From Candidatus Woesearchaeota archaeon (lineage in GTDB: Archaea > Nanobdellota > Nanobdellia > Woesearchaeales > GW2011-AR4): DNA of 30,203 nt. The notes below the pieces were generated by a model. It ran no database searches, was not told where the DNA came from, and saw nothing but the letters and a program-made list of their open reading frames with translations. The stretch spans positions 1-30,203 of the forward strand of contig JACOZN010000021.1 in NCBI GenBank assembly GCA_016181305.1, read 5' to 3'. Positions 10,668-15,502 of this stretch are shown here, in pieces (positions within the stretch are counted from its first letter, which is position 1; each line of letters begins with the position of its first letter). The position numbers were made by a program, and so were the translations under genes.

Positions 10668-10812
10668 ATTCCCAAAAAGTCCCAATACATTCCCAAAATT
10701 ATCCTATTTTAGTCTCAAATATATAACTTTATCGTCTATAATTATTCCCAATATGGTCTTACTATAATCCCAAAATATTCCCAAGAATGAAAAGATTTAA
10801 ATAATTGGGAAT
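10668..10812. repeat. Cluster of ATTCCCAA motifs: direct copies at 10668, 10689, 10744, 10777; near-copies at 10679, 10767; inverted copy at 10805
   Basis: Read directly. The copies at 10777 and 10805 straddle a TATA-like TTTAAATA (10796-10803). Confidence 0.85.
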
Positions 10813-10826
10813 ATCGGCACTCAACA

Positions 10827-11483
10827 ATGTTCTGGAAAAAAGACAATACGGAAAAAAGCCTGAGGCAGATGAACGATCTGCTGAAGAAGTCATTTGCAAA
10901 CGTAAAAAGGGACACGACAAACATTTTCCAGTGGATAAACTATTTCTACAGGAGGAGTGTCGAGCAGGAGCAGCTTGTAAAAAGGCTTCAGCTTGAGCTT
11001 TCGTACATGCCAAGAACAAGGGACGACATAAGAAGAATTATTGATGATTATTACTCTTTTGAGGGCATAATGTCAAGAATAAGGGAATTAAACGGGAAAG
11101 TTGAAGCGCTTGCTGTGGAGAGGCAAAGCGAGAGGCATGCCGTGCAGCAGGTGCAGCCCCAGCGTGAGATTATGGACCTGTCGCACATCGAGAAGCGGCT
11201 TCAGATGCTAGAGCAGAAAAAGCCCTCAATGAGAGAGAAGATAATAAAAAGGCTTACAAGAAACTCAAAGGAGTATGTGAAGAGCGTGATGCTTTCCTAC
11301 ATTAAAAAATACGGGAAGATATCGGCTTTGCAGCTCAAGGAAATGGTTGTTGACGAGCAGAATTTGTGCTCAAAAAGCTCGTTTTACAGGCTTCTTGAGG
11401 AGCTTGAGGAGATTGATGACATAGGCGTCATAAGGCAGGGCAAGGAGAAACACTATATCTCAAAGGCGAAGGTATTTCATTAA
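10827..11483 (+). CDS. Coiled-coil protein with C-terminal winged-helix domain
   Basis: 218 aa; heptad-rich N-terminus; C-terminal ISALQLKEMVVDEQNLCSKSSFYRLLEELEE...IRQGKEKHY. Confidence 0.8.
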   Translation: MFWKKDNTEKSLRQMNDLLKKSFANVKRDTTNIFQWINYFYRRSVEQEQLVKRLQLELSYMPRTRDDIRRIIDDYYSFEGIMSRIRELNGKVEALAVERQSERHAVQQVQPQREIMDLSHIEKRLQMLEQKKPSMREKIIKRLTRNSKEYVKSVMLSYIKKYGKISALQLKEMVVDEQNLCSKSSFYRLLEELEEIDDIGVIRQGKEKHYISKAKVFH

Positions 11484-11505
11484 AACGCATTAAAACATAA
11501 ACCAT

Positions 11506-11551
11506 CGAAAATTCTAAAGAATTTTCGGGGTTTCTGGAATTTCAAATTCCA
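11506..11551. promoter_or_regulatory. Two palindromes upstream of the second coiled-coil/wHTH gene: CGAAAATTCT-AA-AGAATTTTCG (11506-11527) and TGGAATTT-C-AAATTCCA (11535-11551)
   Basis: Perfect 10-bp and 8-bp inverted repeats just upstream of TATTTAAA. The first could also act as a terminator of the upstream gene. Confidence 0.55.
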
Positions 11552-11590
11552 AAAACTATTTAAACAACCTCTCTGCCCAGCATTTTTGGG

Positions 11591-12142
11591 GTGATTAATA
11601 TTTTTGGAAGAATTTTTCTTAGGGGGAGGAGTCTGTGCCTCAGCATCCTTAACAAAAGGCTGAGGGCGGAGTTTTTAGGAATAAAGCACGAGCTGGAGGA
11701 GCATTTGCAGGCAATAAACGAGAACACAAACGAGATAACTGCGAATTATGAGTACATCGGCGAGATAGAGGGAAAGCTCGACAGGCTGGGCGAGAGGGTT
11801 GACCAAATCCAGATGTTCCTTGAGTCAAAGCTTGCCATGCCGGCAGCCCAAAGGAATCGCTTTGAGTTAAAGAGGCTGAACAGGATGGAGCAGCGTGTTT
11901 TTTTAGTCATATACACTCTTGAAGAGGAGAAAAGCGGCGTGACTTACTATGACATAGCAGAAAGGCTTGGCATGTCTGAGCACCTTGCAGGCACTTACGT
12001 GACTTCAATCATAGAAAAAGGCGTTCCAATCCTCAAGAGGTACATCAACTCAAAGCCTTATCTGCGGCTTGAGCCAGAGTTCAAGACGCTTCAGGCCAAG
12101 GAAAACATACTCCAGCTGAGCTTGCAGGAGTTTGGATTCTGA
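11591..12142 (+). CDS. Coiled-coil protein with C-terminal winged-helix domain
   Basis: 183 aa; IKHELEEHLQAINENTNEI coiled coil; VTYYDIAERLGMSEHLAGTYVTSIIEKGVPI HTH. Start codon uncertain. Confidence 0.8.
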   Translation: MINIFGRIFLRGRSLCLSILNKRLRAEFLGIKHELEEHLQAINENTNEITANYEYIGEIEGKLDRLGERVDQIQMFLESKLAMPAAQRNRFELKRLNRMEQRVFLVIYTLEEEKSGVTYYDIAERLGMSEHLAGTYVTSIIEKGVPILKRYINSKPYLRLEPEFKTLQAKENILQLSLQEFGF

Positions 12143-12834: not shown

Positions 12835-12850
12835 GCTGTCATAGGCTGTC
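12831..12850. repeat. Perfect 10-bp tandem duplication ATAGGCTGTC x2 at the convergent stop codons of the membrane gene and the recombinase
   Basis: Read directly. Confidence 0.9.
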
Positions 12851-13654
12851 CAGGGGGCTTTTCACTTTCTTAAGCTGCTGCGTTGAAACCTTTGTGTAAA
12901 TCTGCGTTGTTGACAGGTCAGCATGCCCGAGCAGTTCCTGGATTACCCGTATGTCTGTGCCTGCCTCGAGCAAATGTGTTGCAAAGCTGCTTCTTAGCGC
13001 ATGGCAGAAAACCCTTTTTTTTATGCCGGCTTTTTTTGCGGCTTCCTTGACAACCTTCTGGGCCTGCCTTGCTGTAATTGGGCGGTTTTTCACTGAAAAA
13101 ATATAGGAGCTTTCATCTCTTTTTGCCTTGATGTAATCAGTCAAATGCTGCATCAGTGTATCCGATAAAATGATATACCTTTCCTTGTTGCCCTTGCCGT
13201 GCTTGATTTTGCCGATTTTTTCAGCCAAGTCAAGATCATCAAGCTTTAATGAAACACATTCGCTCACCCTTAATCCTGAGGAGTACATGAACTCAATCAG
13301 TAATTTGTGCTTTGGGTTTTTGACAGCTTCAAGCATTTTTTTTATCTCTTGTTTTGTCAGCACTGTCGGAAGCTTCTTCTCTGATTTTGGGGCCTTGACT
13401 GCATTAAAGGCTGGATTCCGCAAGATTTCATTGTAGAAGAACTTGAGCGAGCTTAAGGCAAGATTTACGCTCCTTGGCTTGAATTTCCGCTCTGACATCA
13501 GGTAAGCAATGTAGCGCTTTGCATCATTCTCATCAACGCTTTGAGGCTCTTTCTTAACAAAATCAAGGAATTTCCTGTTGTGGTAAATATAAGAGTCAAC
13601 GGTTCGCTTGCTGAAACCCCTTATTTTCAGTTCTGTTTCGAGTTTGTCAAGCAT
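12839..13654 (-). CDS. xerA: Xer-family tyrosine recombinase (XerA-like)
   Basis: Intact catalytic residues: GLRVSE (R), GKGNKER (K), HALRSSFATH (HxxR), LLGH, TTQIYT (Y). SAM-like N-terminus and LPTVLT motif. No IntI-specific insertion before HxxR. Confidence 0.9.
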   Translation of the reverse strand: MLDKLETELKIRGFSKRTVDSYIYHNRKFLDFVKKEPQSVDENDAKRYIAYLMSERKFKPRSVNLALSSLKFFYNEILRNPAFNAVKAPKSEKKLPTVLTKQEIKKMLEAVKNPKHKLLIEFMYSSGLRVSECVSLKLDDLDLAEKIGKIKHGKGNKERYIILSDTLMQHLTDYIKAKRDESSYIFSVKNRPITARQAQKVVKEAAKKAGIKKRVFCHALRSSFATHLLEAGTDIRVIQELLGHADLSTTQIYTKVSTQQLKKVKSPLDSL

Positions 13655-13699
13655 TTTTCACCTTTTTCATTAAAACTTTGACAGAACTAGTATAAAAAA

Positions 13700-13725
13700 C
13701 TTCGCCCAATCCGTATTAGGCGAAC
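13700..13725. repeat. dif-like palindrome CTTCGCCCAAT-CCGT-ATTAGGCGAAC
   Basis: Inverted arms with AAT-N4-ATTA core, the same geometry as E. coli dif (CATAAT-GTAT-ATTATG); lies 46 bp upstream of the xer ATG. Confidence 0.6.
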
Positions 13726-13776
13726 ATTTGCGGACACTTTTTATAATTTCACTCATTAACATTCGTATTAACCAAC

Positions 13777-14313
13777 GAAATAATGGCTTTGATACGCATT
13801 AACTGATGTTTAAGCCTACTGCTAAGCTAAAAATGTAGCATTTTTTAATGCATTTGAAGTTTTTGGTGAAAATGCTCCATTAACTAAAAAAACAAAATCA
13901 ATCCTTCCACCCACCAAACCCCCACCCTCCCGCCCTATGACAATGTTTTTATATTTTGAAATTTTTGAAAGTAATAGATGAAATTTTGGAAAAAGTTGAA
14001 ATATTGGCAGAAAGGTGGTGTTATAGGTTTGATTATTGGATTAGTTAAAATACCATTTTTTGTCTTAATGGGAGAGAGTATGCCTTCTATTTTTGTCTAT
14101 TACGCTGGACTGATACCAGATCAGATGTTATGCAATTTTTTAAATTTAGGCTCTGGGGAAAGTTGTGGTTGGTTTGCCTTGATTTATGGTTTCATTTATA
14201 ATCCAATTTTTTTTGGGATGATAGGGATGATTCTAGGTTTATGTTATTCCTTAATTAAAAAAAAGAGTTCGTCTAATGCCCATAACTAATTTTACAATCA
14301 AAGCCATTATTTC
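13777..14313. repeat. Perfect 17-bp inverted repeat GAAATAATGGCTTTGAT (13777-13793) / ATCAAAGCCATTATTTC (14297-14313) flanking cargo gene 1
   Basis: Read directly. An outer inverted repeat also exists: 13724-13737 / 14382-14395 (14 bp) and 13713-13723 / 14436-14446 (11 bp). Confidence 0.95.
13978..14289 (+). CDS. Cargo gene 1: small AT-rich membrane protein
   Basis: 103 aa with 2-3 hydrophobic helices; TATA-like TTTTTATA upstream; 3' end overlaps half-site GTTCGTCTAAT (14267-14277). Confidence 0.75.
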   Translation: MKFWKKLKYWQKGGVIGLIIGLVKIPFFVLMGESMPSIFVYYAGLIPDQMLCNFLNLGSGESCGWFALIYGFIYNPIFFGMIGMILGLCYSLIKKKSSSNAHN

Positions 14314-14504
14314 TCCTTTTGTCTTCGCCTGTACTTTCGTAAAGCGAACTTTATTTCATAAAGTACAACAAAAGCATTTTTGTGTCCGCAAATGTCTAAT
14401 TTTTCTGCGGAAAAATTGGTGGGCATAAAGCCCACTCGCCTAATACTCGTTTCGTGGCAAAATCGAATTCCTTGCGTCATTCAGATTTATGGAAAACTAT
14501 CGTA

Positions 14505-14974
14505 AAATCGGGTTTGAGAACGCATTAACTAAAACAAATTCAATCCAGCCCCCGTCCAATCCCCCCCGCCACCCACCCCAACGTGAAAACGAGGATTTAA
14601 ATAAAAGAAGTATTCTAAAGAAAATAATGGAAATGATTGGAGAACATAAGTATAGAATTTCTTTTGTTTTGATAACTTTTGTATTTGTAGCTGTTATGGC
14701 ATATTTGCTTATTACCTTTAACTTAAACTCAACCTTCAAACAAATAATCAGCAATCCTATAAATTGGGTTATTATAATTATTATAGTTTATATATACAAA
14801 GATATTAAGCCTATAGTAAAACAGATATGGACTCAAACAGAGGTTAGAGATGATATAGAAAAAGAAACAAAAAATAAGTTGCAATTGGAAAATGAGAAGT
14901 TGAGACTTGAAATTGAAATATTAAAACAAAAAAGTCCGTCTAATAGCCCACGATGAAACACTCAAACCCGATTT
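14505..14974. repeat. Perfect 14-bp inverted repeat AAATCGGGTTTGAG (14505-14518) / CTCAAACCCGATTT (14961-14974) flanking cargo gene 2
   Basis: Read directly. Confidence 0.95.
14627..14956 (+). CDS. Cargo gene 2: AT-rich two-TM protein with C-terminal coiled coil
   Basis: Start moved from 14489 to ATG 14627 because 14489-14626 is the repeated non-coding leader, with TATA-like TTTAAATA at 14596. 3' end overlaps half-site GTCCGTCTAAT (14934-14944). Confidence 0.7.
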   Translation: MEMIGEHKYRISFVLITFVFVAVMAYLLITFNLNSTFKQIISNPINWVIIIIIVYIYKDIKPIVKQIWTQTEVRDDIEKETKNKLQLENEKLRLEIEILKQKSPSNSPR

Positions 14975-15263
14975 CACTCTTTGAACCTTCGCCTAATCCC
15001 TATGGATTAAGCAAACTTTTTAATAAAAAGTCCAGTTCAAACAAGATACTCGCCCAGCAAAGTTTAAAACCTTTCAGGCGTATAATACTCGTTTGGCAAA
15101 CTTTTCTGCGGAAAAGTCAAGCCATTGTGGGTTGCCTCAATGGTCGCCAAACTTTGGGCATTAGATGAACTTTTTTCCCAGAATTATCGACTTTGCCCAG
15201 ATTTTATGCCCGGAGGCAGGGCTTTTTGTGCAAAACACCCAAATATTTTGATTTTTGTTGTTT

Positions 15264-15416
15264 TCACCTGTGATACTTAGGATTCACTCCAATCGCTTTC
15301 ATCTCCTCTGCGCCGCACTCGTTGCACTTGTACAAGTCATACTTTGAATTGCCGCTCTGAATTATTCCTCTCTTCATCATGTTCTCGTTGCATTTCCTGC
15401 ATTTTACATCTGCCAT
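15264..15416 (-). CDS. 50-aa zinc-ribbon protein (missed by the ORF track)
   Basis: MADVKCRKCNENMMKRGIIQSGNSKYDLYKCNECGAEEMKAIGVNPKYHR*, with two CxxC pairs and a TATA-like element upstream. Confidence 0.8.
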   Translation of the reverse strand: MADVKCRKCNENMMKRGIIQSGNSKYDLYKCNECGAEEMKAIGVNPKYHR

Positions 15417-15502
15417 GGCTGTTTTTGTTCAGCGCTTGTTTAAATATCTTTGGATTTCTATTTATTATTTTTAATGTATTGCCTTTCTTTTGTTATTTTT
15501 AG

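Follow-up and report, generated by a model that had tools for sequence, protein, structure and literature searches.

Putative XerA half-sites and cassette insertion at a dif-like site beside xerA in a Candidatus Woesearchaeota genome

The xerA gene and its adjacent dif-like site

We analysed an entire 30.2-kb contig (JACOZN010000021.1, 30,203 nucleotides; hereafter the window) from a Candidatus Woesearchaeota archaeon genome (GCA_016181305.1; 1.07 Mb on 22 contigs, ~41% G+C, assembly 78% complete), in which the tyrosine recombinase gene xerA stands beside a cluster of 11-bp half-sites and two small cargo genes. The relatives are groundwater Ca. Woesearchaeota metagenome-assembled genomes; G000 denotes the genome under study, other G-numbers the genomes of relatives and L-numbers the loci compared. 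The 271-aa product of xerA (12839–13654, minus strand) scored 268 bits on the NCBIfam equivalog XerA_Arch (cut-off 220) and aligned continuously, end to end, with Pyrococcus abyssi XerA (4a8e), and the catalytic R, HxxR, H and Y motifs of XerA-type recombinases are visible in this full-length alignment. Its score on the integron-integrase model TIGR02249 was 232.7, under the cut-off of 265, and the IntI-specific insert is missing: ~43 residues of Vibrio IntI4 are absent, query residues 176–196 lying opposite IntI4 182–245. Orthologues with 73–91% identity were present in most of the ~40 congeners searched and on ~45 metagenome contigs. Many other contigs break off a few hundred bases or less from the start of xerA, as is expected if arrays at this position vary or repeat.

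Eight copies of the half-site had been reported in an initial annotation of the window, and all were found (forward at 13700, 14267, 14434, 14934 and 14987; reverse at 13715, 15006 and 15160). That annotation had overlooked a degenerate palindrome (14323–14349) and the right halves of two sites around TAATACTC. Of five exact matches to the consensus in the 1.07-Mb genome, three lie between 13715 and 14997. Short-word blastn of the locus against the genome was too insensitive, returning short exact matches only, and local alignments and a position matrix were used instead. The matrix describes a 15-nt arm and was built from the xerA-proximal sites of 28 relatives, with the window excluded to avoid circularity. 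Thirteen arms genome-wide reached at least 14 bits; five of these fall within 13696–15174 (0.011 expected within 1.5 kb, Poisson P about 1e-12), which bears out the suspected enrichment over the rest of the genome, and two more lie beside an Xer paralogue on contig C5.

The sole full two-arm site of the assembly is the proximal site at 13696–13729 (left arm 13696–13710, spacer 13711–13714, right arm 13715–13729). Its 4-nt gap between AAT and ATTA gives an 11-6-11 geometry (...TAA / T-4 nt-A / TTA...), which matches the archaeal dif (PMC2958812). As had been proposed for the 13700/13715 pair, this is a dif-type site directly upstream of xerA and kept in the genus, where the corresponding palindrome reads four A/C/G bases, TTCG, two variable bases, TAAT, four bases and the mirror image. 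Its left arm touches a TATA-like box (13691–13699, minus strand) that was read from the sequence and presumably serves xerA; the TATA-plus-arm arrangement is kept in relatives. We regard the motif as a probable recombinase half-site family, in line with its first description, and its 11-bp members as the predicted binding arms of XerA, which would itself be the chromosome-resolving recombinase. The left arm overlaps the TATA box and transcription factor B recognition element (BRE) region, so that bound XerA may repress its own gene. One sublineage (L082, L070, L078, L085, L086, L137 and other relatives) has a 172-aa double-zinc-ribbon ORF between xerA and the dif-like site; here a partial arm remains beside the TATA box and the full site is shifted by ~550 nt, within the first ~600 nt upstream of xerA.

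The insert and its cassettes

The two cargo genes had been taken for insertions, and comparison with G001 and other relatives in which the site is empty agrees. In G001 the site is directly followed by a zinc-ribbon gene and a DUF192 gene. Positions 13655–13729 and 15160–15452 of the window are colinear with this empty locus, which leaves 1,445 extra bases (13715–15159). These lie between the chromosomal left arm with its spacer (13696–13714) and the original right arm (15160–15174), which together with its flank aligns with the right half of the site in G001. The insert is thus situated inside dif and its site is empty in relatives, as for integrative mobile elements exploiting Xer (IMEX). 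The variable region is closed by a conserved chromosomal flank with a gene for a 50-aa zinc-ribbon protein (15264–15416, minus strand), which is separated from the xerA start by 310–382 nt in genomes with an empty site and by up to 7.6 kb where the site is filled. Among 23 loci with xerA and this gene on one contig, ~13 are empty and 10 hold 1.5–7.6 kb, with synteny maintained on both sides. The distal junction of the window (15142–15174) consists of a pseudo-arm (15142–15152), a 7-nt spacer (15153–15159) and the chromosomal right arm, a form that recurs at element ends in relatives.

To judge from alignments with relatives, the insert consists of two single-gene cassettes fused together, members of a family that moves across the genus. 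Cassette 1 (13715–14488, plus strand) comprises a 5' module (13715–13935) with the right arm, stem halves and a C-rich leader, a promoter and ORF1 (13936–14289, the ORF itself at 13978–14289), and a 3' module (14263–14488). Cassette 2 (14489–15159, plus strand) is truncated at its 5' end and comprises a leader (14523–14578), ORF2 (14627–14956, or from 14489 in its longer form) and a 3' module with a complete tail (14930–15159); its leader and tail are homologous to those of cassette 1. Every match from relatives breaks at 14488/14489. The tail of cassette 1 is of a long type that is complete in L127 and L072 and is cut at 14488 in the window, and this truncation together with the missing 5' end of cassette 2 implies that two cassettes were fused.

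Mobility is evident from the distribution of the parts. Element segments of 150–500 bp are 90–98% identical between species whose xerA genes are 72–78% identical at the DNA level, and the shared segments occupy other array positions and are sometimes inverted. Between cassette 1 and its version in G016, which has a short tail type, the 5' module is 98% and the tail 87–92% identical, against 70–75% DNA identity for core genes of G000 and G016. The same cassette 1 chassis bears three unrelated cargos, in the window, in L069 (G016) and in L127; homology breaks just after the C-rich leader (13935|13936) and resumes at the core of a lone arm (~14267).

Neither window cargo protein, both small and membrane-like, had a Pfam or NCBIfam match above threshold, and language-model look-alikes were unnamed clusters or weak matches only. 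The two ORFs are all that the window cassettes encode, so they carry no recombinase of their own. Cargo in relatives includes ParE, PIN and HicA proteins, four-helix-bundle (23S IVP/bAvd-like) proteins, a metallophosphoesterase and two IS200-type transposases. Most cargo ORFs match no Pfam family, one of 77 in relatives encodes a serine recombinase, and none has a replication, capsid or transfer domain. TATA-like boxes, again read from the sequence, stand 20–25 nt upstream of both window ORF starts.

A C-rich leader precedes each cargo promoter (13889–13935 and 14531–14578), and cargo replacement begins precisely at its end; the opposite strand has G-tracts that could form a G-quadruplex. The motif CATTAAC occurs three times in the 5' module of cassette 1 (13754–13885) and once in cassette 2, so that a stretch of ~81 bp separating two of the copies has the look of an internal duplication or a mini-insert. 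This leader and tail are shared by elements that stand away from xerA beside unrelated genes (L118, G016:C30:26500-32500; L047, G001:C3:192086-195222), and the L070 and L126 arrays contain IS200/IS605-type transposase genes, so that ordinary insertion sequences are collected too. On the other side of xerA and two genes from it, a cluster of iteron-like repeats with two coiled-coil/winged helix-turn-helix genes (10668–12142), pointed out in the initial annotation, is syntenic in relatives and hence belongs to the core genome, outside the cassettes.

The 3' modules share a fixed order: a lone arm, a palindrome with an 8-nt gap, a tail site with spacer ACTC, one to three hairpins and the pseudo-arm. 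The lone arms at the boundary of cargo and 3' module cover the last codons of ORF1 (14263–14277, plus strand, 17.7 bits) and, in the same frame, of ORF2 (14930–14944, plus strand, 17.8 bits). Behind them follow, in cassette 1, the degenerate palindromic dif-like site (14323–14349) and, in cassette 2, the long-spacer palindrome (14983–15020) that holds the copies at 14987 and 15006; the former aligns with 14987–15016 and with the long-spacer palindromes of other tails. Tail site 1 (14430–14463, plus strand) has a left arm (14434–14444), the ACTC spacer and a degenerate right arm, and its type is conserved in tails; tail site 2 (15072–15105, plus strand) has a left arm at 15076–15086 and a right arm at 15091–15101. 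Long-type tails (L072, L121, L127, L137 and C5:59290-59365) additionally have two or three tandem partial arms (AAAC/G-TTCG...) at 15–16-nt intervals just before the pseudo-arm, which may be extra recombinase contacts.

Both cargo ORFs finish, as first described, in a shared 22-nt motif read in the same frame. This shared frame is what a common C-terminal peptide (Lys-Lys-Ser-x-Ser-Asn) would give, a reading to which we assign hardly any probability: an ORF reads through only five of the 20 distinct lone arms, using two different frames, and the motif is retained beside minus-strand cargo, after stop codons and, as its core, in L127, which has no lysine-coding flank. These counts and L127 contradict a peptide motif, and the earlier view of the half-site at the ORF ends as a DNA element fits the 15 lone copies kept without read-through. 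The three chassis copies are homologous from the core of the arm at 14263–14277 onwards, and the right-hand cargo breakpoint in the three species coincides with it. Both ORFs appear to end in a half-site because their reading frames continue into the opening bases of the conserved 3' module.

The initial annotation further pointed to TAATACTCGTTT at 14441 and 15083 as a possible shared overlap flanking the second cargo gene. Both copies are present. A target-site duplication around this gene is disfavoured, the motif being the core of a dif-like site that occurs about once per element tail. The 642-bp circle suggested to join 14441 to 15083 could form and is not indicated, since the pair lies in two tandem fused elements.

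Junctions, folding and a proposed mechanism

All right arms with their context were tabulated across loci. The left arm and spacer stay chromosomal (one lineage's arm with spacer GTCT is joined to five different elements), while each right-arm variant is linked to its own downstream flank, the 5' end of an element. In the window, likewise, the left arm and spacer of the proximal site track the host lineage and its right arm tracks the element, having come with cassette 1. Element 3' ends consist of a pseudo-arm and TTT plus GGGC (or nearly this sequence); next comes the older neighbour's right arm, and the chromosomal flank adjoins the right arm that lies outermost. Identical element types stand at differing ranks in different arrays. 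From these regularities it follows that crossover occurs at the border of spacer and right arm, on one side only, as in the CTX and VGJ elements of Vibrio. Every insertion would rebuild a complete site beside xerA and leave a wrongly spaced junction behind.

Plain double-stranded exploitation of Xer, in the style of VGJ-phi, TLC-phi or the Acinetobacter dif modules, would require nothing beyond this junction rule and the empty and filled loci: duplex circles would recombine via one good arm, and neither the terminal inverted repeats nor the hairpins would serve as a folded substrate, being instead by-products or sites where accessory factors bind. The tail sites are in keeping with it as duplex dif-like sites, their sequence and ACTC spacer being equal to those of genuine dif sites of other lineages (L072, G040). 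We nevertheless consider this account unlikely. In duplex form the pseudo-arm is 3 bp out of register. Moreover, stems vary in sequence between element types yet remain complementary, and pairing is specific to an element's own end, whereas a protein-binding site would conserve sequence and not complementarity.

The pairing is found at several levels. Three inverted repeats connect the ends of cassette 1 (13712–13722 with 14436–14446, 13724–13737 with 14382–14395 and 13777–13793 with 14297–14313); cassette 2 retains only the inner helix (14502–14518 with 14961–14977), because its 5' end is missing. The tails are highly structured as single-stranded DNA (z from -3.1 to -8.3); that of cassette 2 is predicted to fold into a closing helix and two hairpins (z = -3.1), with the right arm of tail site 2 paired to 15146–15152. 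Seven tails gave a consensus fold of 41 pairs, of which 14 show compensatory double changes. The pairing of the tail-site right arm with the pseudo-arm exists in at least three compensatory versions among the seven and in others in further tails, and one tail hairpin combines a constant 10-nt loop with at least eight different stem sequences. No Rfam family was matched at threshold, and a permissive threshold gave sub-threshold, chance-level matches only.

The left arm of tail site 1 is complementary to cassette 1's own right arm at 13715. Across elements, eight cases are informative: the tail-site left arm complements the element's own right arm in seven of them, involving four different dinucleotides, and never that of the neighbour. 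Joining 3' ends to their own 5' ends in silico adds a perfect helix of 13–16 bp just past the arm, and often a third helix; the gain is 14.6–22.1 kcal/mol, compared with a mean of 4.2 for foreign heads, and the own end is best in eight of nine elements. The folded junction is laid out as an arm duplex, a small bubble, a second arm-like duplex and apical hairpins. As modelled, it would be a dif mimic with the logic of the CTX-phi attP(+) and of attC (R box, central spacer, L box, variable loop), and a cut before its right arm gives precisely the observed integrated layout.

Were these repeats and hairpins instead to act in RNA, as an mRNA panhandle, 3' stabiliser or terminator, with the internal half-sites as inert relics of old insertions, the TATA-like boxes of each cassette and the T-runs at the ends of the tails would find a place, and the inner stem half (13777–13793), downstream of a TATA-like box, could be co-transcribed with its partner beyond the ORF. 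The outer and middle 5' stem halves, however, lie upstream of that box, the paired regions rebuild both dif arms and their centre, for which RNA offers no rationale, and the lack of an Rfam family at threshold also speaks against this idea, which we consider very improbable.

We return to cassette insertion in dif, and consider it probable that XerA arms mark this insertion and that cassettes enter by strand exchange between a folded circle junction and dif. A free cassette would be a circle, at whose junction one DNA strand folds into a long hairpin, the tail-site left arm pairing with the cassette's own right arm and the tail-site right arm with the pseudo-arm, with a small bubble in between. 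XerA would swap one strand at the border of spacer and right arm with the chromosomal dif as partner, and replication or a Holliday-junction resolvase would complete the integration. A working dif would thereby be rebuilt beside xerA as the entry point for the next cassette, with a crippled junction left behind, and cassettes would stack as a result. XerA binding, one-strand exchange, resolution by replication or a resolvase, the circular and single-stranded intermediates and the repression of xerA are all steps that we infer from sequence patterns. P. abyssi XerA is reported to bind stem-loop att sites (review PMC8371274). Whether XerA thus doubles as an integron-type integrase, with dif as attI-like and the folded hairpin as attC-like partner and one-strand exchange stacking the array, is a tentative proposal to which we give somewhat less than an even chance.

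A second Xer-like gene, 42% identical to xerA and just under the XerA model cut-off, has a locus of its own on contig C5 (G000 contig C5:54923-59380; L002 and beyond). An arm-like site lies ~50–90 nt upstream of it, and 3.6 kb of cargo follow (a ribbon-helix-helix/PIN pair and a 780-aa protein) that terminate in the tail family of the window and the highest-scoring arm of the genome. Relatives have wholly different cargo at such loci (restriction-modification-like genes), and contigs often stop there. If this paralogue, or a plasmid or virus integrase acting in trans, moved the cassettes, the xerA-proximal site would be a favoured target only; the conservation of the paralogue in the genus with an adjacent arm-like site, variable cargo and the same tail family agrees with this, as do the tail-bearing elements away from xerA. 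The insertions, however, lie exactly within the XerA-type site beside xerA, their arms fit the consensus of that site, and G016 (genome ~92% complete) has large arrays and no paralogue match at E<=1e-20. On balance another enzyme seems improbable.

Several points weigh against insertion through XerA as proposed, beginning with that conserved paralogue and its variable locus. That the elements depend on the host Xer is deduced only from the similarity of sites, and binding and cutting by XerA are predictions. GC skew and tetramer skew have no clear switch at the site on a 306-kb contig of the relative G059, which leaves a role as terminus or dif without independent support. The lone arm at the cargo boundary and the long-spacer palindromes are left unexplained by the model, arrays L077 and L162 break the arm rule, and one of the nine elements lacks own-end pairing. 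Single-stranded cassette DNA has no known source. No circular form turned up, although no search was aimed at circle junctions, a pattern that is ambiguous in metagenomes because linear arrays of other genomes contain the same junction sequences. Finally, every comparison is between species and none within one population: the metagenome scan yielded no conspecific contig (top xerA match 91%), and clusters with at least 95% xerA DNA identity had identical upstream sequence wherever both contigs extend, without polymorphism.

Relation to known systems

Elements that exploit Xer, together with integrons, are central to bacterial gene flow; the reviews of Xer and recombinases consulted here treat archaeal XerA as a dimer resolvase only. 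Gene capture at dif is known in bacteria, and we found no description of it for archaea in the literature: full-text searches returned none of Xer-dependent cassettes or IMEX in archaea, a 2021 review of archaeal tyrosine recombinases is silent on them (PMC8371274), and no archaeal IMEX is among those listed in reviews of Xer and archaeal recombinases. In the genus studied here, a housekeeping-type XerA and its dif appear to form a gene-capture platform of genome-reduced archaea that collects toxin-antitoxin pairs and small membrane proteins, and this platform accounts for the frequent metagenome assembly breaks beside xerA. The idea that IntI derived from Xer-like enzymes has been put forward for integrons. 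If our reading is true, the locus is a natural Xer-based counterpart of integrons, or a model of their ancestor, and offers a testable model for the origin of integron recombination from Xer; its folded, dif-mimicking junction would connect three paradigms, namely dif, the CTX-phi attP and attC.

With archaeal dimer resolution by XerA/dif (Cortez et al. 2010, PMC2958812) the locus shares XerA and 11-bp inverted arms around a 6-bp spacer. In Thermococcales, unlike here, dif is not beside xerA and no insertions are described; a linked xerA/dif module has been mentioned for some archaea (PMC5357621). The Acinetobacter dif (pdif) modules come closest in their cargo and size, being likewise small accessory modules, often toxin-antitoxin pairs, that are bounded by Xer sites and shuffled between replicons. 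These are plasmid-borne and XerC/XerD-dependent, with alternating site orientation and no conserved structured tail reported, whereas the present locus is chromosomal, lies between conserved core genes and involves a single recombinase type.

The resemblance to integrons (IntI, attI, attC), to which the cargo gene ends had been likened at first, is one of layout. In both, the recombinase gene reads away from an array of small cassettes of mostly unknown or toxin-antitoxin function, insertion takes place beside the recombinase gene, the cassette site is split on integration and ORF ends overlap the site. The predicted fold, too, combines two paired boxes with a central bubble and an apical part that varies; it shares the logic of attC (R''-L''-loop-L'-R', GTTRRRY core), while its sequence is dif-like. 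Membership fails, because the recombinase is a housekeeping-type XerA without the IntI insert acting on sites that are dif-like in sequence, and because the cassettes, judged by their TATA-like boxes, appear to carry promoters of their own, unlike the promoterless cassettes that integrons express from Pc. Crossover here also leaves a whole arm at the cassette start and not 6 nt. The archaeal integrons described by Ghaly et al. 2022 are canonical IntI/attC systems (PMC9668308).

In operation the closest likeness is to IMEX such as CTX-phi, VGJ-phi and TLC-phi of Vibrio cholerae and the gonococcal island, which have no recombinase of their own and reside inside the chromosomal dif. Common to them and the locus are one good and one crippled arm, crossover on one side of the spacer and tandem stacking; as in CTX-phi, a pair of inverted dif-like sites with ~100 nt between them can form a dif mimic on folding. 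Unlike in IMEX, the host, an archaeon, has a single XerA and lacks FtsK, the mobile units are 0.6–2 kb single-gene cassettes without replication, virion or transfer genes, dif lies right at the xerA promoter and the folded stem extends into cassette-specific helices. In its working the locus resembles an IMEX array and in its appearance an integron, and it fails defining tests of both.

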